Assembly (NCBI GenBank): GCA_963706595.1
Contig: OY970166.1
Location: 1,728,001 to 1,792,000, forward strand
From: an uncultured cyanobacterium
GTDB taxonomy: Bacteria > Cyanobacteriota > Cyanobacteriia > Cyanobacteriales > Nostocaceae
Length of the DNA stretch: 64,000 nucleotides
Direction of reading: 5' to 3'
Part shown: positions 17,602 to 33,576 of the stretch, piece after piece
Numbering within the stretch: position 1 is the first letter of the stretch
How the letters are laid out: each line of letters opens with the position of its first letter
Position numbers and translations under genes: made by a program
Notes under the pieces: generated by a model
What the model was told of the DNA's origin: nothing
The model's database searches: none
What the model saw: only the letters and a program-made list of their open reading frames with translations

Positions 17602-18387
17602 ATGACAGGAGTTTTAGAATCGGTCAATGTCTGGCAAGAAGCGGCGAGTAATCTTAATAATTTTTCCACAGCAGAAGTGTTACAACTGCTGGAAAAATAC
17701 CAAATGTTGCCGCAGCTAATCAAAGAGATAGTGCTTGACCAAGCGATCGCACCAATTTCATGTACAACAGAAGAAGAGAAAATTGCTTGGGAAAAGTTAG
17801 CCCAACAATATCAAATTACCTCTGATGATGCGCGTCAGCGTTGGCTTGAGCAAAATAACATGAGTGCAGAACAATTGGATGCGATCGCCATCCGCCAATT
17901 TAAAATAGACAAATTCAAACACCTGACTTGGGGAAACGATTTAGAATCTTATTTTTCACAACGCAAACCCCAATTAGATCGAGTAGTATATTCTCTGATT
18001 AGAACCAATGATGTGGGTATTGCTCAAGAAATCTATTTTCGCCTACAAGCAGGAGAACAAACTTTTGCCGAATTAGCACGGGAATATTCTCAAGGACCAG
18101 AAGCACAAACAAATGGTTTAGTCGGTCCCGTGGAATTGCAAACTATCCATCCAACTTTAGCAAAAATATTAGCTACTAGCCAGCCACAACAACTATTACC
18201 ACCCACTCAATTAGAAAACTGGATAGTCATAGTCCGCCTAGAGAAGTTGTTGCTGACACAGTTAGATAATTCCCTACGCCAACGCTTGCTAAATGAAAAG
18301 TTTCATACTTGGCTACAAGCCCAAATAGTAGCGCAAAATTCCCAAATTCAGCCCAGAGGAAATGCCACAGTGAAAATATCAACCTAA
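17602..18387 (+). CDS. PpiC/parvulin-type peptidylprolyl isomerase associated with T1SS
   Basis: VVYSLIR...FAELAREYSQGPEAQTNGLVGP rotamase motif. Confidence 0.9.
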   Translation: MTGVLESVNVWQEAASNLNNFSTAEVLQLLEKYQMLPQLIKEIVLDQAIAPISCTTEEEKIAWEKLAQQYQITSDDARQRWLEQNNMSAEQLDAIAIRQFKIDKFKHLTWGNDLESYFSQRKPQLDRVVYSLIRTNDVGIAQEIYFRLQAGEQTFAELAREYSQGPEAQTNGLVGPVELQTIHPTLAKILATSQPQQLLPPTQLENWIVIVRLEKLLLTQLDNSLRQRLLNEKFHTWLQAQIVAQNSQIQPRGNATVKIST

Positions 18388-18435
18388 CTTTTGGGTTGTA
18401 GTTATGAATACACTTCTAAATATACTTATCCGGGT

Positions 18436-21435
18436 ATGACTTATATTGCAAGTTCCTTTCAAGAATTTATTTCAAAGCTAGAGGGGTTTGAACATCTACC
18501 CACTCAAGAGATAACTCATCTCTGCCAACAACTACAAGCTTGGCGCTATCGTATAGGACAAAAAATAATTGGGAAAGCTCAACTCCCAGAACAAATTACA
18601 ATTCTTTACGAAGGAAAAGTTCGTTTGTTGGGATATCATCCCCAAACGCAAACACCTACGACATTAAAATTATTACAGCCAGGCGAAATCATCGGTGAGA
18701 TTAGTATATTACGTGAGGTTGCCTGTGAAACCGCGATCGCATCCACCGAAGTTATCTGTCTCAGCTTAAGTAAAAGCGAATATTTACGCCTGCTGACTTC
18801 CTACCCAGACTTTAGCAACACACGCTTAAACCGCAGTCATTTAATCGAAATATTTGATGTTCTCGGTTCACAAGTAGAAAAGCAAGCCAACGCAGTTCCC
18901 AACCTCACAGAACTTGCAGAACAAGCCTTATCCAGAGCCAAAATACATTACCTGAATCCCGGAATCACCTCAGCGAACCAATTAGATAACGAAAATATCT
19001 GGTTTGTTAGTGGTGGTAGTCCAGTCACAAATTTCTCTCCTGGTTCCCGCTTAGAATTCAGTGACACACTTCAAATTAAAGGCACAAATCAGGCGCGTTT
19101 GATTGGTTTATCTCCAGCCGACTTATCATTTTTAGATAGTCATCAGACGCAGACTTCTCCACTCAATATTATCCCAGCAACTATCATTGATGACCTAGAA
19201 ATTCCCTACGCCTATGACCAAGAAAATCCCCAGTCTGAACCACCTCCACAGAAAAATCATCAAAAACATCAAAATTATCCATTTGTTAGCGGTAAAGGCG
19301 AAATAAATAGCATCTTCGCCTGTTTTCAAATGCTCTCGAAACACCTAAAAATACCCTTTCGCAAGGAAGTAATTCGGCGCATTTTAACAGAACAAATCAA
19401 ACGCCAAGGTAATATTTCTTTCCCCGCTTGTGCTTACATAGCCGAGTTAATGGGACTCAAATCCCAGTTAGTAGATTTACCTGTAGCGGCAATTACGCGC
19501 ATTCCTGCACCAGCGCTCATTTATTATGGTGATAGTTACGCTGTTTTATATGAAACCGGAGCTAATACTATTGTTGCAGGTGTACCATCCCAAGGAATTG
19601 TCCGTTGCAAACCTGCGGAATTTATCGCCCAATTAGATATTGATGAAAGCAATTTACCTCCCCAGGTAAAAGTTTTATTACTGTCTGCTACGAAAGAAAC
19701 ACCTCAAGAACGCTTTGGTATTCAATGGTTTATTCCTTATCTGTCAAAGCATCGGCGAGTTCTCATAGAAGTCTTTATTGCTTCGTTCTTTGTCCAGTTA
19801 GCCCAGTTAGCTAATCCCCTCGTAATTCAGCTAATTATCGACAAAGTTATCGTTCAAAATAGCATTAGTACCCTAAATGTTTTAGGAGTTTTGCTCTTAG
19901 TAGTCGGGATATTTGAAGCCTTACTCACCACATTAAGAACTTACTTATTTGTGGATACCACCAACCGCATTGATATGGGTTTGGGGTCAGAAATCATCGA
20001 CCACTTACTACGTCTACCACTGCGCTATTTTGAACGCCGACCTGTAGGTGAACTGGCGACTCGCGTCAACGAATTAGAAAATATTCGGCAATTTCTCACT
20101 GGTACAGCTTTAACAGTCGTATTAGATGCCGTATTTTCGGTAATTTATATTGTCGTCATGCTGTTTTACAGTTGGCAATTAACTTTAGTAGGTTTAGGAA
20201 CAATACCTATATTTATTATTCTGACATTAATTGCTTCTCCCACAATTAGCAAACAATTACGCACCAAAGCTGAACGCAACGCCCATACTCAATCATATTT
20301 AGTTGAGGTAATGTCAGGTATTCAAACAGTAAAAGCGCAAAATATTGAATTACAATCGCGTTTTTCCTGGCAAGAGCGTTATGCACGGTATGTAGCGGCT
20401 GGTTTTAAAACCGTAATCACTTCCACCCTGGCTAATTCTACCAGTAGTTTTCTCAATAAACTCAGTGCATTGTTAGTTTTGTGGTTAGGTTCTTATTTAG
20501 TTTTGCAAGGAGAATTAACTCTCGGTGAATTAATCGCTTTTAGAATTATCTCAGGTTACGTTACTAGCCCCATATTGCGTTTAGCTCAACTTTGGCAAAG
20601 TTTCCAAGAAACTGCTTTGTCGCTGGAGCGTTTAAGTGATATTGTTGACACACCACAAGAAGGTGAAGAAGACAGAGGAAATATTCCTTTACCAGCCATT
20701 TCAGGAAGTGTGAAATTTGAAAATGTTTCCTTCCGATTTGCAACTAGCGGTCCTTTACAACTTTCTAACGTTAATCTGGAAATTGCATCGGGTAAATTTA
20801 TTGGCATTGTCGGACAAAGTGGTTCAGGTAAAAGTACATTAATGAAATTACTGCTGAGACTGTACGAAGTCGAATCGGGCAGAATTTTAATTGATGGTTA
20901 CGATATTTCCAAAGTGGAACTTTATTCCCTGCGGCGACAGGTGGGTGTAGTTCCCCAAGAAACACTATTGTTTGATGGAACTGTTCAGGAAAATATAGCT
21001 TTAACGAATCCCGATTCGACAACTGATGAAATTATTGAAGCGGCTCGTATTGCTGCGGCTCATGATTTTATTATGTCCTTACCCAACGGTTACAATACAC
21101 GGGTAGGAGAACGGGGTGCTGGACTTTCAGGAGGACAAAGACAGAGAATTGCGATCGCTCGTTCTATTTTACAACGACCAAAATTATTAGTTTTAGACGA
21201 AGCCACAAGCGCTCTAGACTATCCCACAGAACGACAAGTTTGTTTAAACTTAGCTAAAGCCTTTCAAGGTAACACAGTCTTTTTTATTACCCACCGCCTC
21301 ACCACTGTTAGCCATGCAGATATGATTGTCGTCATGGATAATGGCAGAGTTATAGAACAAGGAAACCATCAAGAATTAATGGCTGCTAAAGGTCATTATT
21401 TCTATCTTTATCAGCAACAAGAAGTCAATGTTTAA
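18436..21435 (+). CDS. Type I secretion ABC transporter (HlyB-like; cNMP domain + C39-like domain + TMD + NBD)
   Basis: cNMP-like N-terminus, GQSGSGKST, LSGGQRQRIAIAR. The C39 catalytic motif looks degenerate (NSIFACFQML; GDSYAVL). Confidence 0.93.
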   Translation: MTYIASSFQEFISKLEGFEHLPTQEITHLCQQLQAWRYRIGQKIIGKAQLPEQITILYEGKVRLLGYHPQTQTPTTLKLLQPGEIIGEISILREVACETAIASTEVICLSLSKSEYLRLLTSYPDFSNTRLNRSHLIEIFDVLGSQVEKQANAVPNLTELAEQALSRAKIHYLNPGITSANQLDNENIWFVSGGSPVTNFSPGSRLEFSDTLQIKGTNQARLIGLSPADLSFLDSHQTQTSPLNIIPATIIDDLEIPYAYDQENPQSEPPPQKNHQKHQNYPFVSGKGEINSIFACFQMLSKHLKIPFRKEVIRRILTEQIKRQGNISFPACAYIAELMGLKSQLVDLPVAAITRIPAPALIYYGDSYAVLYETGANTIVAGVPSQGIVRCKPAEFIAQLDIDESNLPPQVKVLLLSATKETPQERFGIQWFIPYLSKHRRVLIEVFIASFFVQLAQLANPLVIQLIIDKVIVQNSISTLNVLGVLLLVVGIFEALLTTLRTYLFVDTTNRIDMGLGSEIIDHLLRLPLRYFERRPVGELATRVNELENIRQFLTGTALTVVLDAVFSVIYIVVMLFYSWQLTLVGLGTIPIFIILTLIASPTISKQLRTKAERNAHTQSYLVEVMSGIQTVKAQNIELQSRFSWQERYARYVAAGFKTVITSTLANSTSSFLNKLSALLVLWLGSYLVLQGELTLGELIAFRIISGYVTSPILRLAQLWQSFQETALSLERLSDIVDTPQEGEEDRGNIPLPAISGSVKFENVSFRFATSGPLQLSNVNLEIASGKFIGIVGQSGSGKSTLMKLLLRLYEVESGRILIDGYDISKVELYSLRRQVGVVPQETLLFDGTVQENIALTNPDSTTDEIIEAARIAAAHDFIMSLPNGYNTRVGERGAGLSGGQRQRIAIARSILQRPKLLVLDEATSALDYPTERQVCLNLAKAFQGNTVFFITHRLTTVSHADMIVVMDNGRVIEQGNHQELMAAKGHYFYLYQQQEVNV

Positions 21436-21512
21436 CTGAGTAGAGACGCGATTCATCGCGTCTTTTACAAAATCAATTTCTAATAAATTTTTCACCACAA
21501 AACTAAATCATC

Positions 21513-23075
21513 ATGATTCAAATTAATGGGAATGGCAACGGTAAAGTAAAAAGTGATGTTAAAGATTCGCGGGTACTCACATCTTTAAACAAGGCTTCTC
21601 ATCAGCCTTTAGCAAATGCCAATTATACTAATTTTGACCAATCAGTTGTGTTACGCCAATCTCCAATTTGGTCACGCACAATTATGATGACTTTAATCGG
21701 ACTAGCTTGTTTTGGCATTACTTGGGCTTATTTCGCCAAAATCGAGCAAGTAGTACCTGCTACAGGTCAACTCAAGCCGGAAGGGACAGTCAAAGAAGTT
21801 CAAGCCCCTGTGAGTGGAGTAGTAAAATCGGTTCATGTAAAAGATGGAGAAAAAGTCAACCCAGGAGATTTGCTGCTAACTTTTGAAACTGTTGCTACAG
21901 TTGCTGAATTAGATGCTTTAAAAAAGATTCGCACGGCGTTAACCGAAGAAAATCAAATTTATCGTCAGTTAATGGCAACTAGTTATACTACAGCATCTGA
22001 AGTGGAATTTTCACGTGGTAAATTACCAGTAGATGCCGAGTTTCTTTTGAAAAGTAGGACAGCTTTAGTTAAAGAAAATGAATTGTTACGTGCTGAATTA
22101 AGCAACTTAAATACAGCTACAGGTTTAGGAGTTGATGAACAACAACGCTTACAATTTGCTCAAAGAGAATTTGATTCTCGCTCTGCTGCAAGACAGTTAG
22201 AAGTAGAGAAAACTAAGAAAGAACTTGCTCAAATAGAAGTGAGAAAGAGTAATACTCAATCTAGTTTAACTATTCAGCAGAGTATTTTAGACAAAATTAA
22301 AACCCTGGCTGAGGAAGGTGGTATTTCTCAGCTTCAATATCTCAATCAACAACAACAAGTCCAAACACTCACAGCCGAAATAGCGCAATTAGATCAGGAA
22401 CAGCAAAGGCTACAGTTTGGAATTGAGCAAGGACAGCAGGAACTGCAAAATACTGTGGCTGCTTCCGGTAAAAACGTGTTAGAAAAAATAGCTGATAATA
22501 AAAAACGTATTGCCGAAATTGATAGCCAATTCATGAGAATTGTGCTAAGTAATCAACAAACATTGGCAGATATAAATAGTAAAATTTCTCAAGCTCAGTT
22601 GAATTTTCAATATCAAGAACTGCGCGCTCCTGTAGCCGGAACAATTTTTGACTTACAAGCAAAAAGCCCGGGTTTTGTCGCCAATGCGAGTCAGGAAGTC
22701 TTGCAAATTGTACCTGATGATAAATATATTGCTGAAGTTTTTATCACCAATAAAGATATTGGTTTTGTGCGGGAAGGAATGCATACAGATGTGAGAATTG
22801 ATTCTTTTCCTTTTAGCCAGTTTGGGGATATTAAAGGAAAAGTAATTAGTATCGGTTCAGACGCATTACCACCTGATGAAACATATCAGTTTTATAGATT
22901 TCCGGCAACAATTAGTTTGGATAAACAAAATTTAGATATTCAGGGTAGAAATATCTCGTTACAATCTGGAATGTCAATTGTCGCCAATATTAAGGTACGT
23001 GAAGAACGTACAGTCATGAGTCTATTTACAGAAATGTTTACTAAACAAGTTGATAGTTTGAAAGAAGTACGTTAA
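21513..23075 (+). CDS. HlyD family type I secretion adaptor
   Basis: One TM, VPATGQLKP, coiled coil, DIGFV...VRIDSFPF. Confidence 0.93.
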   Translation: MIQINGNGNGKVKSDVKDSRVLTSLNKASHQPLANANYTNFDQSVVLRQSPIWSRTIMMTLIGLACFGITWAYFAKIEQVVPATGQLKPEGTVKEVQAPVSGVVKSVHVKDGEKVNPGDLLLTFETVATVAELDALKKIRTALTEENQIYRQLMATSYTTASEVEFSRGKLPVDAEFLLKSRTALVKENELLRAELSNLNTATGLGVDEQQRLQFAQREFDSRSAARQLEVEKTKKELAQIEVRKSNTQSSLTIQQSILDKIKTLAEEGGISQLQYLNQQQQVQTLTAEIAQLDQEQQRLQFGIEQGQQELQNTVAASGKNVLEKIADNKKRIAEIDSQFMRIVLSNQQTLADINSKISQAQLNFQYQELRAPVAGTIFDLQAKSPGFVANASQEVLQIVPDDKYIAEVFITNKDIGFVREGMHTDVRIDSFPFSQFGDIKGKVISIGSDALPPDETYQFYRFPATISLDKQNLDIQGRNISLQSGMSIVANIKVREERTVMSLFTEMFTKQVDSLKEVR

Positions 23076-23116
23076 TCAAGAGTTTGTAGTGAGGCTTTCA
23101 ACCCTCATTGAGAATA

Positions 23117-23215
23117 TATAGAGGTATCCACTTCAATGAAGTACATCATAGCCTCCTCCTCGCTTGCGGGGAGGGGGTTGGGTTCTTGTATCTCACTTAA
23201 CTGATAACCGCTATA
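23117..23215 (+). mobile_element. Miniature element 'B' (uninterrupted copy)
   Basis: TATAGAGGT...ACCGCTATA inverted ends; interrupted copies at 32943-33504 and 46567-46828. Confidence 0.75.
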
Positions 23216-23216
23216 T

Positions 23217-23409
23217 CAGGACTTACGCACTGTACAAATTAATCATGGTATGCTGTTACCAAAAATAGCCAATTTTCGGCTTGGAACAACGATTATGTTG
23301 ATAGTAAACATACCCGTGTGGTAGGGGTTTAGCAATGCTAAACCCCTACGAAATATCTGCTTTTTAGTGTTACGCATATTGGATATTTATTGTCAAGGCG
23401 TAAGTCCTA
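23217..23409 (+). mobile_element. Miniature element 'A' (TIR AGGACTTACGC) carrying a REP palindrome
   Basis: CAGGACTTACGC...GCGTAAGTCCTA ends; REP at ~23321-23349. Confidence 0.8.
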
Positions 23410-23770
23410 ATTATCACATACAGGAATACAATTTTATTTATGCCCTATTTTAGGCTTGTCAGCGCAAAGCGCAGGCTACGCCAACAAAAATTAAATATTA
23501 GTCATATATATTTCAATACCGTTCAGTTAGCGTCAAACACCTTAAAATGTGTAGGTTGGGTTGTTCGCGTTAGCGTTGCGGAGCAATGGAACGTTAACGT
23601 AGTTTACCGAAGGCGTAACCCAACATTTCCGGGGGCTAAATATATTGGTTTCTTTGGGGTGTAACAGTTGAGGGTGCGGAATGTGGGTTGTAAAGCAAGG
23701 GTGAAAACTATCATTTCTAGGCGGGTGTAGAAACCAACAGAACAGCTATTGTTTGATGAAGTTAATATCC

Positions 23771-26059
23771 TTACTTAAAAAATACCTGAAAAATTACTGA
23801 AAAAATATCATTTGTTGTTTGTAATTCTTGACCAAAAGTATCATCACCAAAATCATGAATATTTCTGCCCCAGTTAAAAGTAATACTAGAAAGATTAGAA
23901 CTACTACCCCATGAATACTTTGAGGAAATGCCATAACTATCAATACTTCTTTGGGGTGAAAAATAAGCAGTTAAGCTGGCATTTTTACCCAAGGATGCAG
24001 TTAAACTGGCTTGAATTTTATTACCAGTTGAATCTGGTAATAAGTCTAAAAGTTGACTAATCCTAAAAGATAAATTTCTCCAATTGATATTTGTACCAAC
24101 ACTTAAAAAATTATCAACGGGATTATCTAAAAAATTAGCATCATCTCGATCCCAAGCGTAACGAAATCCTGTAAATAAACTCAAGTTGCTAGTAGAACTT
24201 AATCTAAATTGTTTTGATAAACTGCCTTCGACTTTACTATAATAATCTTTATCACCATTATCATAGGCGATCGCCCCCACATTTAACAACCAATTATCCC
24301 AATTAATTGTATAATCTCCACCTACATAAACTTTCAGATCCTCGGAAAATATCGCCCCAGTATAGTAACGCAAAACACTATTGTAATTAGTAATATTACC
24401 TGTAAAACTTACATGAGGGTAATAATTAGTTTTCTCATTCAAAGTATTAATAGTCTCAAAATTCACATCTCTCTCCAAAACAGACACATAAGCTTGAATA
24501 TAAAAATTATTTAAGTCCGCAGAATTGATGCTATTAGCAATGCCATTATCATTAGTTGCTAGTGCAAAATTCACATCAGAATTAATTCCACCTTCTCCTC
24601 CCACTCTCACAGTTCTTTTTTCTTCCCCAGTGGGAACATAGCGAAATGTTTGAGGAAAAGATCGTTTTGTAACTGGAGATATTCCCAACCAGACACTATT
24701 AAATTTACCCGCAGGTATGTTTGATTTTCTATTAACTGCATCACCATTATTAGCAGTTCTTTGATTATGTACTGCTTCCCCTACACCACCTTGATAAATC
24801 ACAAAACTATTAGCAGGAACTCTAATATTATTCGCCGCATTAAATAAATTTTTGTTAATATTAGTATTGGCGTTTTCAGGTAAACCTGCTAAACTTGGTT
24901 CTACATCTGGTAAAATTTCCCCCACCGCACCTAATGCAGAATTTAAACCGAAATTCTCATCATTAACTATGAGATTTACACCTTTAATAGTTCTCCCTAA
25001 AACTGCTTTTTCTGCATTAGTTTTGACAATTTGGCGCACTCGGTAATAACCCAAGCTATAGGTATTATCAATAGATTCCTGACGAGTAATAGAAGTTTGA
25101 TTAGATTGACTATTTCCTGGAGTAGCACCAATATTAGGTAAATATAAATCTATTCCTACGAATTCACCATTTACACCTTGATTTTGCCAACCTGGTAATT
25201 TAATAATTGCCAAAGTTTCGGGAGAAACCACATCACCAATATTACCTAATTGTTCAATCCGAGTCGGAACCAAAAATCTTGGTTCAATACTATTTCTATT
25301 CACCACTAAAGGAGGTAATAAATTACATTGTTCTCCAGAAATGGCAGCATTATTATTAACTAAATCACAGGGTCCAATAAAAGTTTGTTGTAATTCAAAA
25401 CCTCTTAATGTTTGTGGTTGGGATTGAATAATGGAAACTTGGCGATTTTCATTAATTGTTCGCAGTTGAATATAATCTGCTTGAAAATCAGAGGTAAAAA
25501 TATTATCCTGGGAAAGACTTTGAATAACTTGACTGTCAACTTGATAAAGAGCATTAATATATAAATTATCAGTACGTTCATTACCAAATACGAACTGACT
25601 ATTTACCACAGCTTTAGTTAAATGATTAACCGTCAAATCATTCAGAGAAAAAGTAGTTAAAATTGCTGGTACTTTATCTTTAGGAACTGCTTGAGGTGGA
25701 GTTTTATAAATGTTATCCCCAGGATTAGAATCATCTGATGGAATTTCTATAGGTTGTGGAATTTCTAAACTTTCTTGGTTGGGATTATTTAGAGGTAATA
25801 AATCTGATGCTTGATGAGAAAAACTTGGCTGATTCTCTTCGATATTTTCAGGAATACTCTTGATTTGAGGAAGATTATTTTTAACATCCTCTAATATTTG
25901 CAGTTTATTTAAGTTAGTGTCGGGTATGATTTCCGAAATGGATTCAGCTATTGGTTGATTTTCTTCTGCTTTTACTGGAGTCTGTTGAGTAACCAATATC
26001 TGGGATAAGCTGATGAAAATTTTCAGAAAAATTTTAATAAGACTTGCCGATTTTTTCAC
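23771..26059 (-). CDS. Hypothetical exported protein with probable C-terminal outer-membrane beta-barrel
   Basis: Signal-like N-terminus (..PVKA|EE). The last ~220 aa show alternating amphipathic strands ending IFSVIFQVFFK. Strongly AT-rich. Confidence 0.7.
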   Translation of the reverse strand: MKKSASLIKIFLKIFISLSQILVTQQTPVKAEENQPIAESISEIIPDTNLNKLQILEDVKNNLPQIKSIPENIEENQPSFSHQASDLLPLNNPNQESLEIPQPIEIPSDDSNPGDNIYKTPPQAVPKDKVPAILTTFSLNDLTVNHLTKAVVNSQFVFGNERTDNLYINALYQVDSQVIQSLSQDNIFTSDFQADYIQLRTINENRQVSIIQSQPQTLRGFELQQTFIGPCDLVNNNAAISGEQCNLLPPLVVNRNSIEPRFLVPTRIEQLGNIGDVVSPETLAIIKLPGWQNQGVNGEFVGIDLYLPNIGATPGNSQSNQTSITRQESIDNTYSLGYYRVRQIVKTNAEKAVLGRTIKGVNLIVNDENFGLNSALGAVGEILPDVEPSLAGLPENANTNINKNLFNAANNIRVPANSFVIYQGGVGEAVHNQRTANNGDAVNRKSNIPAGKFNSVWLGISPVTKRSFPQTFRYVPTGEEKRTVRVGGEGGINSDVNFALATNDNGIANSINSADLNNFYIQAYVSVLERDVNFETINTLNEKTNYYPHVSFTGNITNYNSVLRYYTGAIFSEDLKVYVGGDYTINWDNWLLNVGAIAYDNGDKDYYSKVEGSLSKQFRLSSTSNLSLFTGFRYAWDRDDANFLDNPVDNFLSVGTNINWRNLSFRISQLLDLLPDSTGNKIQASLTASLGKNASLTAYFSPQRSIDSYGISSKYSWGSSSNLSSITFNWGRNIHDFGDDTFGQELQTTNDIFSVIFQVFFK

Positions 26060-26117
26060 AATTATTAAATAGGATTAATGTTGAAGATTTAAAAAAAACT
26101 TTGTGAATACAGGAAAA

Positions 26118-26143
26118 ATAACCTTTCTCAAAGAAAGGTTATT
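26118..26143. terminator. Perfect 12-bp hairpin between the small secreted gene and the barrel gene
   Basis: AATAACCTTTCT-CAA-AGAAAGGTTATT, followed by T-run on the minus strand. Confidence 0.75.
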
Positions 26144-26200
26144 ACTTAGAAGATATTTCGATTAGTTAATAACTTACTGAAGTATTAACATTTATGGTAT

Positions 26201-26593
26201 CTAAGGTGTGTTAATAATGGCTACTGTTCCACCTGTGACATCAATATTGACATCGTTGGCATCCAATTGGTTAGCTTGTATTGCGCCTAAACTAAGAGCA
26301 TCTTCAACAGCAATGGACTGAATATAAACGCTAGATCCAGTTAAGGTAATCTCACCACCAGTACCTCCAGCAAAAGCTTCTGTACCCGCACCACCATTAG
26401 TCACAGCACCTGCATAAGCTGTACTTTTACCAACTGCAACAGCAGCAGATGCTTCAGTTACGTTAACGCCATCTAAGATAAAAGAAGCAGAACCAGCAAC
26501 ACCACCTTCTCCAGCAAAAGCAGAGGTAGCAACACCGAAACTTCCAGCAACAACAGCAGCAGCAACTAATAATTGAGATTTGATTTTCAACAT
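26201..26593 (-). CDS. Small Sec-exported Gly/Ala/Val-rich beta-strand protein (130 aa)
   Basis: MLKIKSQLLVAAAVVAGSFGVATSAFA|GEGGVAGSASF...; AGGGAAG RBS before ATG 26593. Confidence 0.8.
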   Translation of the reverse strand: MLKIKSQLLVAAAVVAGSFGVATSAFAGEGGVAGSASFILDGVNVTEASAAVAVGKSTAYAGAVTNGGAGTEAFAGGTGGEITLTGSSVYIQSIAVEDALSLGAIQANQLDANDVNIDVTGGTVAIINTP

Positions 26594-26770
26594 GGTAATT
26601 CTTCCCTGATTTGAGTTTTGGATTTGTAAATTAATTGAGAACAAGCAGTTCTCAGTCAGGTTGTGGATATATGAAACTTGACTGAGGATGTAGGTTATTA
26701 ACCTAACGGTGGAGAACGAACCCCAATTTGAGTCATGTTTTTTAGTCGTTGAGTATGTAAATTACAGCAT

Positions 26771-29700
26771 TCATACGGACAAAGTATATGAAATCTCACC
26801 AATTGCGACATTACCAACAGTGGCTAAGGTTTCTGTTCCTGATTTAATCAGCACATTACTACCACTCTTTTCTTCAAAGGTAGTGATACTACCCAGAACT
26901 AGAACTTCGTCTATACCTATTTGATAGTCAATGATTCTATCTATTCCTTGTCCAGCGCCGATGACAAAGGTATCTATTCCGTCTCCACCAGTGTAGCGGT
27001 CGTTTCCTGTGCCACCATCAAGGTAGTCATTGCCTGAACCACCGAAGAGAATGTCTGCACCTGTACCACCGTAGAGGCTGTCATTGCCATCATCACCGTA
27101 GAGGCGGTCATTGCCATCATCACCATAGATGGTGTCGTTATCATTACCACCGTAGCCAATGTCTGCACCTGTACCTAAGAAAATGGTGTCATTGCCATTG
27201 AAACCGTAGATGCGATCATTGCCATCTAAAGCATCCATGATGTCATCAGCAGCTGTACCTCTGCCAATCTCACTACCAGAGGTAAATTCTTGGATATCTG
27301 TGACACTCAAGCTGTAAGCAGTAGTGGCATCTGGTGTTGCACCTACTGTGGTGTCATCTACATCAACGTTGACATTGTAACTGGTCTGGGTTTCAAAATC
27401 CAATGTGGTGCCGGCTTTGAGATATAAGGCATGACTGATAATTTCAAAGAAGCTGGCATCAGCGCCACTCAAGCTGAGGTTATTTGTTCCCAGTTCATCA
27501 TCAGTGATAGCAATATCTGCCACCTTAACGGCGCTGGTGGTGTCAGTATTTTCAAGCAAGCTGGTAATAGTGTTGCTGAGAGTGACGGTTGTAGGCGGGT
27601 TGTTGACAATACTTAAAGTCGTTGTCGCCAATGCACTGATATTGGAACTGGCAGCACCATCATCAACTACAAACTCAATTGTCCGGTCAGTGGTATCAAC
27701 AGAAGCCGCCGTATTGTTGTAAGTGATGGTACGGAGGACTTGCTGATATTCGGCAACAGTACCTATGCCACTTAAAGTCAGAACCCCATTGTCGTAACTA
27801 GAGGTAATGCTGCCTGTGGTAGTGGCAGTGAGAGTTTCATCACCATCATTCAAAAGGTTGGTAATAGTAACAGTTGCCCCCACGAGGTTGGCTGAGTTAC
27901 GGTCTACTAGGCTCAAATTGGTATCAACAACTACAACAGGAGTGCCACTAAAAGAGGTATTGAAATCAATGTCGGACAATTGAGAAAGTTCGAGAACCCC
28001 ACTAGAGCCGATACCAGCCCGACCAAACACCACGTAGCTCTGCCCTGAATTACTGCCGTTGGGGTCGGCACCCCTTGCCCCAATAATCAGGTCATCAATG
28101 CCGTCGCCGTTGATGTCCCCGGCGCTGCTGACAGAACTGCCTGAGTAGTCAATCGCATTAATGCCGTTAATAGCGAAGCCGTTGCTGCCGTCGAGGCTGG
28201 AGAGGTTGAGGGTGGAACCCAAGCCACTGCTGCTGCCAAACACCACGTAGCTCTGCCCTGAACGATTATTGCCGTTGGGGGAGGCAAAGTATGCCCCAAT
28301 AATCAGGTCATCAATGCCGTCGCCGTTGATGTCGCCCGCGCTGCTGACTGAATCGCCTGAGAAGTCATCTGCTGCAATGCCGTTAATAGCGAAGCCGTTG
28401 CTGCCGTCGAGGCTGGAGAGGTTGAGGGTGGAACCCAAGCCACTGCTGCTGCCAAACACCACGTAGCTCTGCCCTGAACGATTATTGCCGTTGGGGGAGG
28501 CACGGTTTGCCCCAATAATCAGGTCATCAATGCCGTCGCCGTTGATGTCCCCGGCGCTGCTGACAGACCTGCCTGAGCTGTCAAATTCTGCAATGCCGTT
28601 AATAGCGAAGCCGTTGCTGCCGTCGAGGCTGGAGAGGTTGAGGGTGGAACCCAAGCCACTGCTGCTACCAAACACCACGTAGCTCTGCCCTGAAAAATTG
28701 CCGTTGGGGTCGGCACTGCTTGCCCCAATAATCAGGTCATCAATGCCGTCGCCGTTGATGTCCCCCGCGCTGCTGACAGACCTGCCTGAGCTGTCAAAGG
28801 CATTAATGCCGTTAATAGCGAAGCCGTTGCTGCCGTCGAGGCTGGAGAGGTTGAGGGTGGAACTGAAGCTACTGCTGCTGCCAAACACCACGTAGCTCTG
28901 CCCTGAACTACTGCCGTTGGGGTCGGCACTGCTTGCCCCAATCATCAGGTCATCAATGCCGTCGCCGTTGATGTCCCCCGCGCTGCTGACAGACCTGCCT
29001 GAGAAGTCAAAGGCATTAATGCCGTTAATAGCGAAGCCGTTGCTGCCGTCGAGGCTGGAGAGGTTGAGGGTGGAACTGAAGCCACTGCTGCTGCCAAACA
29101 CCACGTAGCTCTGCCCTGAACTACTGCCGTTCGGGGAGGCACTGCTTGCCCCAATCATCAGGTCATCAATGCCGTCGCCGTTGATGTCCCCGGCGCTGCT
29201 GACTGAAAGTCCTGATCTGTCACTCGCATTAATGCCGTTAATAGCGAAGCCGTTGCTGCCGTCGAGGCTGGAGAGGTTGAGGGTGGAACCCAAGCCACTG
29301 CTGCTGCCAAACACCACGTAGCTCTGCCCTGAATAATCATTGCCGTTGGGGTCGGCACCGAATGCCCCAATCATCAGGTCATCAATGCCGTCGCCGTTGA
29401 TGTCCCCGGCGCTGCTGACTGAATAGCCTGAGCTATCACCCGCATTAATGCCGTTAATAGCGAAGCCGTTGCTGCCGTCGAGGTCGAGGACAGGAGCGGC
29501 GTTGCCAAACACCACGTAGCTCTGCCCTGAATTACTGCCGTTGGGGTCGGCACGGTTTGCCCCAATAATCAGGTCATCAATGCCGTCGCCGTTGATGTCC
29601 CCCGCGCTGCTGACTGAATTGCCTGAAAAGTCACCTGCATTAATGCCGTTAATAGCGAAGCCGTTGCTGCCGTCGAGGGTGGAGAGGTTGAGGGTGGAAC

Positions 29701-30989
29701 TGAAGCCACTGCTGCTGCCAAACACCACGTAGCTCTGCCCTGAATTACTGCCGTTGGGGTCGGCATCGGATGCCCGAATAATCAGGTCATCAATGCCGTC
29801 GCCGTTGATGTCCCCGGCGCTGCTGACTGAAAAGCCTGAGTTATCACCCGCAATAATGCCGTTAATAGCGAAGCCGTTGCTGCCATCGAGGTTAGAGAGG
29901 TTGAGGGTGGAACCCAAGCCACTGCTGCTGCCAAACACCACGTAGCTCTGCCCTGAATCACCGCCGTTGGGGTCGGCACGGTTTGCCCCAATAATCAGGT
30001 CATCAATGCCGTCGCCGTTGATGTCGCCGGCGCTGCTGACAGACCTGCCTGATCTGTCACCCGCATTAATGCCGTTAATAGCGAAGCCGTTGTTGCCGTC
30101 GAGGTTAGAGAGGTTGAGGGTGGAACCCAAGCCACTGCTGCTGCCAAACACCACGTAGCTCTGCCCTGAACCATTATTGCCGTTGGGGGAGGCACCGTTT
30201 GCCCCAATAATCAGGTCATCAATGCCGTCGCCGTTGATGTCCCCCGCGCTGCTGACAGAACTGCCTGAGTAGTAATCTGTTGCAATGCCGTTAATAGCGA
30301 AGCCGTTGTTGCCGTCGAGGTTAGAGAGGTTGAGGGTGGAACCCAAGCCACTGCTGCTGCCAAACACCACGTAGCTCTGCCCTGAAGCACCGCCGTTGGG
30401 GTCGGCACCATAAGCCCCAATAATCAGGTCATCAATGCCGTCGCCGTTGATGTCCCCGGCGCTGCTGACAGACGAGCCTGAGCTGTCACCCGCATTAATG
30501 CCGTTAATTTTGAAGCCGTTGCTGCCGTCGAGGCTGGAGAGGTTGAGGGTGGAACCCAAGCCACTGCTGCTGCCAAACACCACGTAGCTCTGCCCTGAAG
30601 CAACGCCGTTGGGGTCGGCATACTTTGCCCCAATAATCAGGTCATCAATGCCGTCGCCGTTGATGTCCCCGGCGCTGCTGACAGACGAGCCTGAGAAGTC
30701 ACCCGCATTAATGCCGTTAATTTTGAAGCCGTTGCTGCCGTCGAGGCTGGAGAGGTTGAGGGTGGAACCCAAGCCACTGCTGCTGCCAAACACTACGTAG
30801 CTCTGCCCTGAATCACCGCCGTTGGGGTCGGCACCGATAAGCCCCAATAATCAGGTCATCAATGCCGTCGCCGTTGATGTCCCCCGCGCTGCTGACTGAA
30901 AAGCCTGAGTTGTCATTTGCTGCAATGCCGTTAATTTTGAAGCCGTTGCTGCCGTCGAGGCTGGAGAGGTTGAATGTGGAATTTGTCAT
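26771..30989 (-). CDS. FG-GAP (integrin-alpha-like) repeat / cadherin-like / RTX protein, likely T1SS adhesin; +1 frameshift at 30836
   Basis: 14 repeats with AGDINGDGIDDLIIGA Ca-binding loops, Ig/cadherin-like domains (LDFETQTSY) and GGxGxDxLx nonapeptides. ATG at 30989; an extra base at 30836 breaks the frame. Confidence 0.88.
28021..30975 (-). repeat. 14 tandem 213/216-bp near-identical coding repeats
   Basis: Constant blocks such as AGGTCATCAATGCCGTCGCCGTTGATGTC recur about every 213 bp; one shorter linker after unit 7; visibly GC-richer than the flanks. Confidence 0.97.
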
Positions 30990-31012
30990 GTTTTTAAGTG
31001 TTTTTGTCGTAA

Positions 31013-32089
31013 TTATGCGGGATTTTTAGCGTAAACAGCATCATTATCATTGTTGCCAATGGTAATTACCCTTCTGATTTGATCACTGCGAAAACCGATC
31101 GCCATCGGAGAGCGAATTTGTGGTAATACTGCTATGTCATACAATTCGTTAACTACGCCTTCGATGTTCAGGGAGTGAACGATATCCCCTGTTTTCAGGT
31201 CTATAACCAACAAACCGCACCTAGCAGTAGTATCTTTGGCCGCCAGCTTGTCATCTAGGGGTAAGCCACTCAAGGTTTTGGTATGACGGGATTCGGAAAT
31301 ACCAACAATGGCAAAGTTGTGATGAAATGCCAGTCCTCTTTGATAACCTGGACAAAAGGCTATGGCCTGAAATTTGCCTGTTTGTAAGTCTGCATAACCA
31401 AATTCCCCTGTTCCGGAATTAAGTAACCACAATTTGTCTTGATACCATCGGGGTGAGTGGGGCATGGATAGTCCTGCTAAGACTATTTCGTTGCTGTCAA
31501 TGTCTATAATGCAACCTCCTTCTACCCGCTTTTGTCGCCAACCCTCGTTAATATCCGACTTACTAATAACGCTGACGTATTTAGGCTTGCCATCTTTTAG
31601 TGCCACTCCGTTGAGATGACATCTATCCTCTGCTGCGAGTTTAGATATGAATGGTGGTTGCCAAACTGGGATAAAACTATGGGTTTGGCTAACAGTGGCT
31701 AAACAGCTAAATAAAGTGTTAGCAAAAACTATTTGTTGCTTGTCATCAACGACAATATCGTGAATATCTAAGTCCCCTGTGATGTAACCAACTTGGGGTA
31801 GATATACGGCATCGTGATTATTATAAGTTTCCCCTGGTGCGAGGGTATTTTCAAATCGCCACAGTTGGTAAAGGGTGCTAATATAAAGGCTGTTACCTGT
31901 GGCATATAAGCCCATACACCTGTCTAGGGTGCGCTCGAATACAGCTAGTTTACCAGTTGGTTCTAAGCCGATAAAAAATACTTTACCTGCTTGGTAAGTG
32001 GTAAATACAAGGCTAAGATTTTGTTCGTATAGCCAAGGTGTAAATTGCCTGGATGCTGTGATTTCTAGTTGGGGTTTTGTTATATTCAT
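31013..32089 (-). CDS. TIGR03032/DUF4915 family protein (uncharacterised)
   Basis: SLVFTTYQAGK, TGDLDIHD, AAEDRCHLNG and LSMPHSPRW motifs; 23 nt upstream of the FG-GAP gene. Confidence 0.88.
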   Translation of the reverse strand: MNITKPQLEITASRQFTPWLYEQNLSLVFTTYQAGKVFFIGLEPTGKLAVFERTLDRCMGLYATGNSLYISTLYQLWRFENTLAPGETYNNHDAVYLPQVGYITGDLDIHDIVVDDKQQIVFANTLFSCLATVSQTHSFIPVWQPPFISKLAAEDRCHLNGVALKDGKPKYVSVISKSDINEGWRQKRVEGGCIIDIDSNEIVLAGLSMPHSPRWYQDKLWLLNSGTGEFGYADLQTGKFQAIAFCPGYQRGLAFHHNFAIVGISESRHTKTLSGLPLDDKLAAKDTTARCGLLVIDLKTGDIVHSLNIEGVVNELYDIAVLPQIRSPMAIGFRSDQIRRVITIGNNDNDAVYAKNPA

Positions 32090-32784
32090 TTAAGGGTTCA
32101 CCAAAAAATAAATGCCTCAATTTGGTGGGAGAGGGCAAGGACTGCCTATCGTTGGTAATGAGCGGGCAAGATGCCCGCACCACAAGAAAATTGGCATGAT
32201 TTTTTTAATTGGAGTTCTCTAAAAACGGATGTGTTTTTACTAAGAGAGACTATCTATTCTGTACTTAAAATCGCAGCAGAATGAAGCCTTATTTCTAATC
32301 AGAAAAAGACCAGATGAACAGAAATTAAATTTAAACCCAACTTGACCTAAATAAAGGAGTTAAGCTATATCTAATTTTTATCTAAGTGGTTTTTTACGAA
32401 ATGGATTATGTTTAACCTCCTGAAAACCAAAATATCCTTAAATTTTACTATTGTCAAATATTTTACACGCTGTTTTTCCAAAAAATATATAATCAGGTTT
32501 TGGGTTAATAGCAACTTACTTAATAAGCTAAAAATTTGAGCAGAAAAATCAGTAAATACCACCTATTCAAAGTGATTCTTCATGAAAAAATTATCTGATT
32601 TGGTTTATTATCTTGATATAGCTAGTATTTTCACTGAATTTTAGATCATGTTTAGATATGTATAATTTGCCATTGATTCATAAAGCTTTGATATTTGATA
32701 TTTTTTATTAGTAATTTTGTCTATATAAAGTAGAAAAAATAACTTATTACACTGGGTGTAAAAGATGCTTTGGTTTTGCTTTTC

Positions 32785-33536
32785 TAGAACTTACCCATTG
32801 ACAATAAATACTAAATATGAATAACAGTAAAAAGCACATATTTCGTAGGGGTTTAGCAATGCTAAACCCCTACGACACGGGTGTATTTAGTATCAACATC
32901 ATCATTGTTCAAAGCCGGAAATTGCCTATTTTGGTGAGAATATATAGCGGTTATAGCAAAAGTTAAAAGTCAAAAGTCAAAAGTCAAAAGTCAAAAGTGA
33001 AAGACTTGCTTTGACTGGGTTTTAGACTTTTCCTATGTCCTAATCTCCTTGGCGGTTGCTATATCAGTTAAGAGGTTGTTTGAAAAGTCTTATTGTTGGT
33101 AGCAAAACATTCTAGATCCCCCTAAATCCCCCTTAAGAAGGGGGACATTGATCGCTGTTCCCCCCTTTTTAAAGGGGGCTAGGGCGTGTTTTCAAAGTCT
33201 AGAAGTAGGTTGGGTTAAGCGCAGTGCAACCCAACGCACCAAACCCAATATGGGGTAAAGTTGGGTTTCCCAAAACCTCAACCCAACCTACATTTACTTT
33301 TTAAAGGGGGCTAGGGGGGATCTGCGAGTGCCTAAAATCACAGCCAACCACTTTTCAAACATCCTCTAAGTGAGATACAAGAACCCCACCCCCAACCCCC
33401 TCCCATATCAAAGGTTTATCCTTTTCTTCCCCCCGTTTCGGGGGGATTTCGGGGGGTGCGAGGAGGGGGCTATGATGTACTTCATTGAAGTGGATACCGC
33501 TATACCATGATTAATTTGTACAGTGCGTAAGTCCTA
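32785..33536 (-). mobile_element. Nested stack of at least five miniature elements
   Basis: A (32785-33536) contains B (32943-33504). B contains C (32954-33061, TA/TA) and D (33072-33366, TAA/TAA, TIR GAGGWTGTTTGAAAAG). D contains E between 19-bp direct repeats. Confidence 0.8.
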
Positions 33537-33576
33537 TATATAAGGGTTTTGCGCGGTTATTCTTGAAGAAGTTAGA

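Follow-up and report, generated by a model that had tools for sequence, protein, structure and literature searches.

Near-identical blades with a variable face: probable concerted evolution under diversifying selection in a cyanobacterial FG-GAP propeller protein

How can fourteen tandem repeats remain almost identical in DNA while a few of their codons differ from copy to copy at the first two positions and keep the third? The question is raised by a gene for an FG-GAP repeat protein in a window of 64,000 nucleotides (nt), the whole stretch of DNA analyzed here, from an uncultured Nostocaceae cyanobacterium (assembly GCA_963706595.1, contig OY970166.1, positions 1,728,001 to 1,792,000). The original prediction saw a possible diversifying adhesin, produced either by gene conversion plus diversifying selection or by a trans-acting mutagenic mechanism resembling a diversity-generating retroelement (DGR). 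Our analysis indicates that concerted evolution and diversifying selection on the propeller face, acting through ordinary mutation and repeat shuffling, probably account for the pattern.

The gene lies on the minus strand, with its ATG start at 30989 and its end at 26771, and repeats fill the 5' 70% of it. The array is real, and its extent was refined from 28021..30975 to 27977-30989 on the minus strand; Tandem Repeats Finder gives a period of 213 and 13.9 copies, and splitting by codons recovers the 14 near-identical units first described. Units are 195-216 nt long, unit 7 being the shortest (195 nt), and their 165-nt core has a mean pairwise identity of 0.893. The FG-GAP family PF01839 matches unit 1 and, in the open frame, 13 further stretches (E value 2e-102), and all 14 units carry the DxNxDG calcium-loop motif, from which the protein would be expected to bind calcium. 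Read from its sequence, the array is two seven-bladed FG-GAP propellers with a junction after unit 7: in relatives, single propellers are followed by a spacer domain, and the shortened unit 7 closes with the opening residues of that spacer. The tail contains RTX repeats (PF00353, E value 2.4e-24) and a weak cadherin-like segment (PF00028, E value 0.006, below its cut-off). FG-GAP-type and RTX are the only Pfam families over cut-off in the protein, NACHT or NB-ARC with WD40 is absent from it and no signal peptide was seen. The FG-GAP family is large, with at least 7909 matches among 8000 candidates scored. Calcium-loop motif counts in 120 homologues (P0001-P0120) peak at 13-14 (68/120) and 20-21 (25/120), multiples of seven in a distribution that the search's length filter shapes. 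The third-position GC content of the repeats (27977-30989) is 0.70, compared with 0.40 in the tail and 0.35 genome-wide, which is compatible with a GC-rich donor or with GC-biased conversion.

Variation is concentrated in seven hypervariable codons per unit: c, e and f in loop 1 and g, h, i and j in loop 2. The statement that nearly all variation falls in two short loops is right about the concentration and slightly overstated in degree, since among units 2-14 the loops hold 84% of pairwise differences; the seven codons alone hold 58%. Mismatch at codon positions 1, 2 and 3 is 0.60, 0.65 and 0.20 in the seven codons versus 0.016, 0.012 and 0.061 in the scaffold, and all 13 in-frame units carry distinct seven-residue sets. 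The reported third-base pattern was recovered in full: the codon before GAC/GAT/TAC ends in T in 14/14 units, the codon before GCC does so in 14/14 (in unit 1, after a surplus base) and the codons between CCC/CCG AAC GGC and TCA GGG do so in 32/32, with AGA, AGG, TCG and AAG among the exceptions at other sites. The T endings are not accounted for by host codon usage (joint chance 2e-7, treating 24 distinct alleles as independent draws).

The same seven positions are variable in other proteins, with within-protein heterozygosity of 0.80-0.87 (0.54 at i) in the 67 of 120 homologues that could be parsed. In the homologue set, G, S, N, D, R, F and Y predominate at these sites, a composition of the kind typical for binding loops. 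Third bases differ between arrays: in genome G025, codon h ends in G in 35/39 units, codon i ends in C in 36/39 and TGG is commonest at f, while all seven e codons of array L055 end in A. Alleles encoding different residues share a third base within arrays at a rate of 0.534, versus 0.42 ± 0.013 after between-array shuffling (1000 shuffles), as expected if the alleles of an array descend from one founder codon. The NNT pattern thus seems best read as an inherited founder third base, kept because only amino-acid-changing positions are driven to differ.

A structural model places these codons. Units 8-14, modeled by AlphaFold with an alignment of 65 sequences, gave a predicted local distance difference test (pLDDT) score of 96 and a predicted template modeling (TM) score of 0.94; a single-sequence fold had been unusable (pLDDT 35). 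The best Foldseek matches are integrin alpha (E value 3e-23), with integrin alpha-5 and alpha-V at TM 0.6-0.7. The seven sites are confined to the d-a and b-c loops, and the calcium motif lies in the a-b loop. In integrin blades, passages of PMC3192720 place the a-b (calcium) loop and the d-a and b-c loops at opposite blade ends, and, going by strand order, the seven sites are predicted to share the face opposite the calcium loops. This would be a putative binding face, making the protein a candidate adhesin with the tunable binding surface that had been proposed.

Differences at the seven codons are predominantly amino-acid changing. Pairwise counts in this array give nonsynonymous (dN) and synonymous (dS) divergences of 1.09 and 0.12 at the seven codons, compared with 0.017 and 0.074 in the scaffold, and a minimum-step count gives 36 nonsynonymous steps over 16.8 sites versus 10 synonymous steps over 32.9 (ratio 7, P = 9e-10). 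The minimum-step ratio is 1.8-5.9 in all 18 other young arrays (P < 0.03 each). Using pairwise proportions (pN and pS), pN is above both synonymous measures in 18/19 young arrays, this one included, and above scaffold pS in 34 of the 38 arrays parsed; because the arrays are related, they are not fully independent tests. Among pairs encoding the same residue, synonymous differences at the seven codons about match those in the far scaffold (0.089 versus 0.060 here; 0.185 versus 0.192 elsewhere), indicating no local excess of mutation. Single-step connectivity of alleles was tried as a test of stepwise mutation, but random NNT sets also prove connected in 34-95% of cases, which makes the test uninformative. 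Overall, an excess of dN that recurs in other genomes and falls in two same-face loops of a confident model supports the proposed diversifying selection on the propeller face.

The scaffold, by comparison, is kept uniform within genomes. Scaffold distance is 0.03 within this array and 0.03-0.07 within this genome (G000) and G025, versus 0.20 between them. These two genomes have in common the 7+7 layout, the junction motif and an ending after blade 14 (both propeller endings). The nearest neighbour of a unit is in its own genome for 105/116 units, the 36 units of three G025 genes form one clade (support 100/99) and the four-gamete test fails in 93/153 marker pairs. Blades thus cluster by genome, which supports the gene conversion branch of the original prediction; because the architecture is common to the genomes while the blades are genome-specific, homogenization appears to be continuing. 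Lineages differ in the wording of the junction, which may therefore have more than one origin. Faces turn over between relatives: in a comparison with the closest 14-blade relative (G115), face residues match at 0.18 at the same blade versus 0.15 at other blades. Within G115, faces are identical at blades 2/5, 8/11 and 10/13, that is, three apart. Two further genomes (G161 and G271) differ in blade number, which makes blade-by-blade comparison with them impossible. In G025 (C1:3923189-3937732), three tandem 14-blade paralogues with one shared blade pool stand behind one TIGR03032 gene; a frameshift in the third is likely an assembly error, because adjoining housekeeping genes are also split.

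Under the explanation we favor, recombination among near-identical blades, by gene conversion and unequal crossing over, would keep the scaffold uniform and copy blade variants around the array, while point mutations that change residues at the seven face positions would be favored and escape homogenization. As residue changes fall at codon positions 1-2, the founder third base would survive, giving NNT here and NNG, NNC or NNA in other arrays. The outcome would be a lineage-specific putative binding face, and the selective agent may be a changing biotic partner, such as phage, grazers, a host surface or neighbouring cells.

Several points weigh against this explanation. Evidence for selection comes from counting methods and not from recombination-robust likelihood codon models; the seven sites were chosen in this array after seeing the data, and then held fixed for the other arrays; the parsing anchors are invariant by construction; and 43 of 81 sources were dropped from the array survey for having too few parsable units. 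With the path that minimizes nonsynonymous steps, the within-codon ratio is 2.6 (P = 0.034) here and 1.13 (P = 0.10) pooled over the 18 other young arrays, and because this conservative ratio is weak elsewhere, part of the variation may be older alleles spared homogenization. The array's own units do not form one resolved clade in the tree (2 changes), and four-gamete failures can also stem from recurrent mutation. The gene is frameshifted in this assembly, no alleles were found in ten same-genus genomes and an exact 45-base scaffold pattern had 0 matches in metagenome contigs.

One alternative is that the repeats are remote DGR targets in which the adenines of an AAT/AAC template are rewritten. 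Consistent with this, 80/90 hypervariable codons in the array have T or C as their last base, A leads at first positions (43/90) where C is rare, and 30/40 variable columns include A; remote targets are described in cyanobacteria in parts of PMC7517822, and the assembly is scored 94% complete. The earlier statement that the window lacks a reverse transcriptase (RT) holds for the 44 open reading frames (ORFs) scanned, but the genome has a DGR RT-Avd cassette ~2.9 Mb away: among five RVT_1 matches, one stands beside Avd and an FGE-sulfatase/C-type lectin-type target, which keeps the DGR option live. However, blastn and tblastn found no copy of the unit outside the array in G000, and an adenine-tolerant template scan of that genome returned only poly-A noise (22-23 non-A mismatches at best). 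As a control, the same scan recovered the template repeat for one of two variable regions (VRs), with 4 non-A and 14 A mismatches; the second control VR, beside the RT, yielded none, so a template may be missing from this assembly. Adjacent adenines do stay fixed, as had been noted: two silent TCA adenines are kept in 26/26 positions (P = 0.003 at a 20% rate), 27 columns of the unit alignment are invariant A, and 67% of positions 1-2 in codons c, h, i and j are not A. In the 18 other arrays, A or G is the last base of 262/1243 hypervariable codons, and 94 of these codons specify W, K, E, Q or M; DGR RT, Avd and C-type lectin targets are absent from 83/83 related stretches; and the repeats are 5', whereas most VRs are C-terminal according to passages of PMC5758913. 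With no template found although the genome's own DGR template is detectable, silent adenines fixed and a third base that varies (A and G included), the branch invoking a DGR-like or trans-acting mutator was not upheld. The resemblance to DGRs is, on these sequence patterns, superficial, and we regard remote DGR targeting as highly improbable.

A different account derives the loop alleles from old variants in a common FG-GAP pool, horizontally recombined and merely tolerated through relaxed constraint or escape from homogenization, with no positive selection on new mutations. The same loop words do occur in distant genera (for example, YFASPNG and AEFD in G028), some allele pairs differ by two or three bases and lack intermediates (AAA/GCT, GCA/AAT, GAC/TCC), the conservative-path ratio is near 1 in other arrays, the gene arrived on an island and synonymous differences beside the loops are high in this array (0.35). 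Yet relaxed constraint cannot raise pN (0.57) eightfold over pS (0.07), and old imported patches would yield neither array-specific third bases nor codons between the variable ones that are as uniform as the far scaffold (0.08 versus 0.06 here; 0.17 versus 0.19 elsewhere), which leaves this account unlikely. That silent differences at or between the sites do not exceed those of the far scaffold in the other arrays, and do so only slightly here, argues both against wholesale old patches and against a regional mutator. The latter has been considered as an unknown template-free activity on positions 1-2 of the seven codons; an extreme contrast is seen in the youngest arrays (in L055, scaffold pS is 0.04 versus pN 0.57, and a single column has six codons that all end in A) and the uncharacterized TIGR03032 gene often adjoins, but such a mutator would have to recognize the codon frame, something that selection does at no cost, and TIGR03032 also flanks old, diverged arrays such as that of G028. 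We consider it very improbable. In a more elaborate form, perhaps slightly less so but still a long shot, the protein would be an extracellular antibody-like repertoire whose seven face codons are rewritten at positions 1-2 by a dedicated template-free, non-adenine-specific mechanism, in which the adjoining TIGR03032 protein may take part, with recombination dealing the variants among blades; the data favor plain selection over any dedicated mechanism. Lastly, the pattern could be an assembly or polishing artefact of a tandem array, given single-base errors at ~1 per 27 kb of conserved ORF, the frameshift in unit 1 and two singleton changes in unit 6. As independent assemblies of many genera show this contrast at these same seven sites, and errors would not respect codon position and protein face, this is scarcely credible.

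The frameshift itself is plausibly an assembly error, because similar breaks occur in conserved ORFs of the assembly (single-base frame breaks in 7/163, 6 of 7 being +1) and the frame is intact in G115, the closest 14-blade relative; real decay would be the alternative. One sequencing run (share 0.05) covers 240 bases of the tail only and none of the array or the frameshift.

The genome's own DGR components are of separate interest. The cassette at G000:C1:4623926-4626917 (L003) comprises the FGE-sulfatase/C-type lectin target, Avd (NF033474 over cut-off) and a 304-amino-acid (aa) RT, possibly truncated, whose end coincides with a small palindromic repeat; the target yielded no template. A second target, with a VR 84% identical to that of L003, lies at C1:1870928-1871069. 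At G000:C1:3654047-3654455, an AAC-rich template lies downstream of another VR (14 A and 4 non-A mismatches), and a second template-like stretch was identified at 4450859-4450972; both are near none of the five RVT_1 matches and are possibly orphan templates served in trans. Long RT-containing ORFs of 748 and 1182 aa are found at G000:C1:2269227-2271473 and 5299509-5303057, the former with a P-loop-like C-terminal part and an adjoining nuclease-like ORF. We take these two ORFs to resemble defence-associated RTs.

The gene belongs to a small island (Table 1). Four same-genus genomes (G002, G003, G006 and G009) have an empty site, with a gap of 175-502 bases between hlyD and GH57, and in a fifth these two genes are on separate contigs. 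Neither the array nor DUF4915 was found in 10/10 same-genus genomes, while 45/300 genomes of the family have a strong DNA match to the array. Inverted dispersed repeats bracket the island at 23117-23409 and 32785-33535 (148 nt at 86%, 47 nt at 96% and 34 nt at 100%); they are abundant in same-genus genomes and may have mediated insertion. Passenger genes at 23771-26644 have no Pfam or NCBIfam match and were not found in 83 related FG-GAP stretches. The 762-aa ORF has 33% GC, two paralogues in the genome and a weak atlas likeness to outer-membrane proteins; the 147-aa ORF is Gly/Ala-rich with an apparent signal peptide. No paper on TIGR03032/DUF4915 was found in our literature search.

The RTX tail and the presence of an HlyB/HlyD exporter, ~4 kb from the FG-GAP gene, suggest that the protein is probably type I-secreted and located at the surface or outside the cell, in which case the resident HlyB/HlyD may export it. 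FG-GAP proteins of another cyanobacterium were detected in vesicle fractions, according to parts of PMC9003413. A toxin or protease reading was dropped, since profiles for RTX haemolysin (66 of 1000) and serralysin (25 of 500) scored far under their cut-offs. A role against phagocytosis is likewise unsupported: as passages of PMC13747020 report, a sponge-symbiont protein with cadherin and FG-GAP domains had no effect on sponge uptake.

Table 1 Features of the FG-GAP locus (positions in the window)
Feature	Position	Strand	Remarks
FG-GAP x14 / spacer / cadherin-like / RTX gene, ~1405 codons	26771..30989	-	Relative G115 has the same start and an unbroken 14-blade frame
Propeller 1, units 1-7; unit 7 short, ending in a remnant of the spacer-domain start	29477..30989	-	
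Propeller 2, units 8-14, predicted seven-bladed integrin-alpha-type fold	27977..29476	-	AlphaFold and Foldseek
C-terminal spacer, weak cadherin-like segment and RTX nonapeptide repeats (type I secretion signature)	26771..27976	-	
Loop 1 example in unit 8, strand d to strand a, codons c, e and f; recurs in every unit	29423..29440	-	
Loop 2 example in unit 8, strands b to c, codons g, h, i and j plus an optional extra codon	29333..29362	-	
Surplus base (+1 frameshift) in unit 1	30833..30839, near 30836	-	Possibly an assembly error
TIGR03032 / DUF4915 gene, ending 23 bases upstream of the FG-GAP start	31013..32089	-	Neighbour in 22/77 related loci
Island of ~10.5 kb: 762-aa ORF, 147-aa ORF, FG-GAP gene and TIGR03032; flanked by hlyD and GH57	23100..33570		
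Resident type I secretion locus (PPIase, HlyB, HlyD), candidate exporter	17602..23075	+	TIGR01846 and TIGR01843 over cut-off

The protein family itself is known. Bacterial integrin-type FG-GAP propellers (PF01839; Chouhan et al. 2011, PMC3192720), as presented in passages of that paper, are alike in their seven repeats, a DxNxDG loop per blade, tandem propellers and the integrin-alpha fold; this member adds near-identical blades, an RTX tail and a TIGR03032 neighbour, and the same passages make no mention of DNA homogenization or selected face positions. The closest likeness in mode of evolution is to the WD40 repeats of the HNWD genes of Podospora anserina, including HET-D and HET-E (Paoletti et al. 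2007, PMC1805685), which, in the parts of the paper concerned, combine concerted evolution within and between genes with a few positively selected codons per repeat. There the selected codons of HET-E lie in the d-a loop and b-c turn atop the propeller, the same two loops as in the FG-GAP array. High internal repeat conservation is also described for fungal NOD-like receptor repeats (Dyrka et al. 2014, PMC4986451, in part), as in the array's core. Passages of these two fungal studies describe a process in which mutations arise across many repeat copies, are spread or removed by recombination and, where they bring new residues to one face, are retained by selection, and by analogy the same process most likely operates in the FG-GAP array. 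Unlike the HNWD proteins, the FG-GAP protein is bacterial, predicted to be extracellular and variable at seven sites, not four, and it has no NACHT or effector domain and no repeat-induced point mutation.

Other systems are alike in part. Recently amplified propellers such as the WRAP Npun_R6612 (Pereira and Lupas 2022, PMC9218822) also have blades more similar within a protein than between homologues, and frameshifted copies are common; sections of that paper already list highly repetitive FG-GAP propellers and suggest self-recognition roles. Where these sections see independent fresh amplifications, the FG-GAP array points to continuing homogenization with a site-specific amino-acid excess. 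DGRs (Wu et al. 2018, PMC5758913; Vallota-Eastman et al. 2020, PMC7517822), as far as passages of those papers describe them, are alike in variation at positions 1-2, a constant third base and a presumed ligand-binding surface, whereas the array lacks a template repeat, adenine specificity and a linked RT or Avd, has 14 internal 5' repeats in place of one 3' VR, and forms a propeller, in contrast to the C-type lectin or Ig fold of DGR targets. The biphasic model of repeat evolution (Persi, Wolf and Koonin 2016, PMC5120217) likewise involves fast divergence of copies under positive and relaxed selection; in the part of that model considered here, copies are later fixed and conserved, whereas FG-GAP blade faces have turned over between the closest 14-blade relatives. 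No prior report of selection in bacterial FG-GAP arrays was found in a literature search that left out most subscription journals and all supplements, and the supplements of PMC9218822 may show FG-GAP alignments bearing on novelty. What would be new is that a secreted bacterial integrin-type propeller evolves in the manner of HET-E, and does so across its family.

For genome scans, the array carries a caution: selection on homogenized repeats can leave the third base of a codon constant beside two variable ones, and this pattern alone does not identify a DGR. A large family gains a testable handle in seven defined face positions that appear to be under diversifying selection in many cyanobacteria and some other bacteria, and the protein is a natural candidate binder scaffold whose variable positions are already mapped. 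The repertoire-building mode of fungal HET-E would thus extend to a secreted bacterial integrin-like fold, which suggests an arms race with biotic partners at the cell surface.

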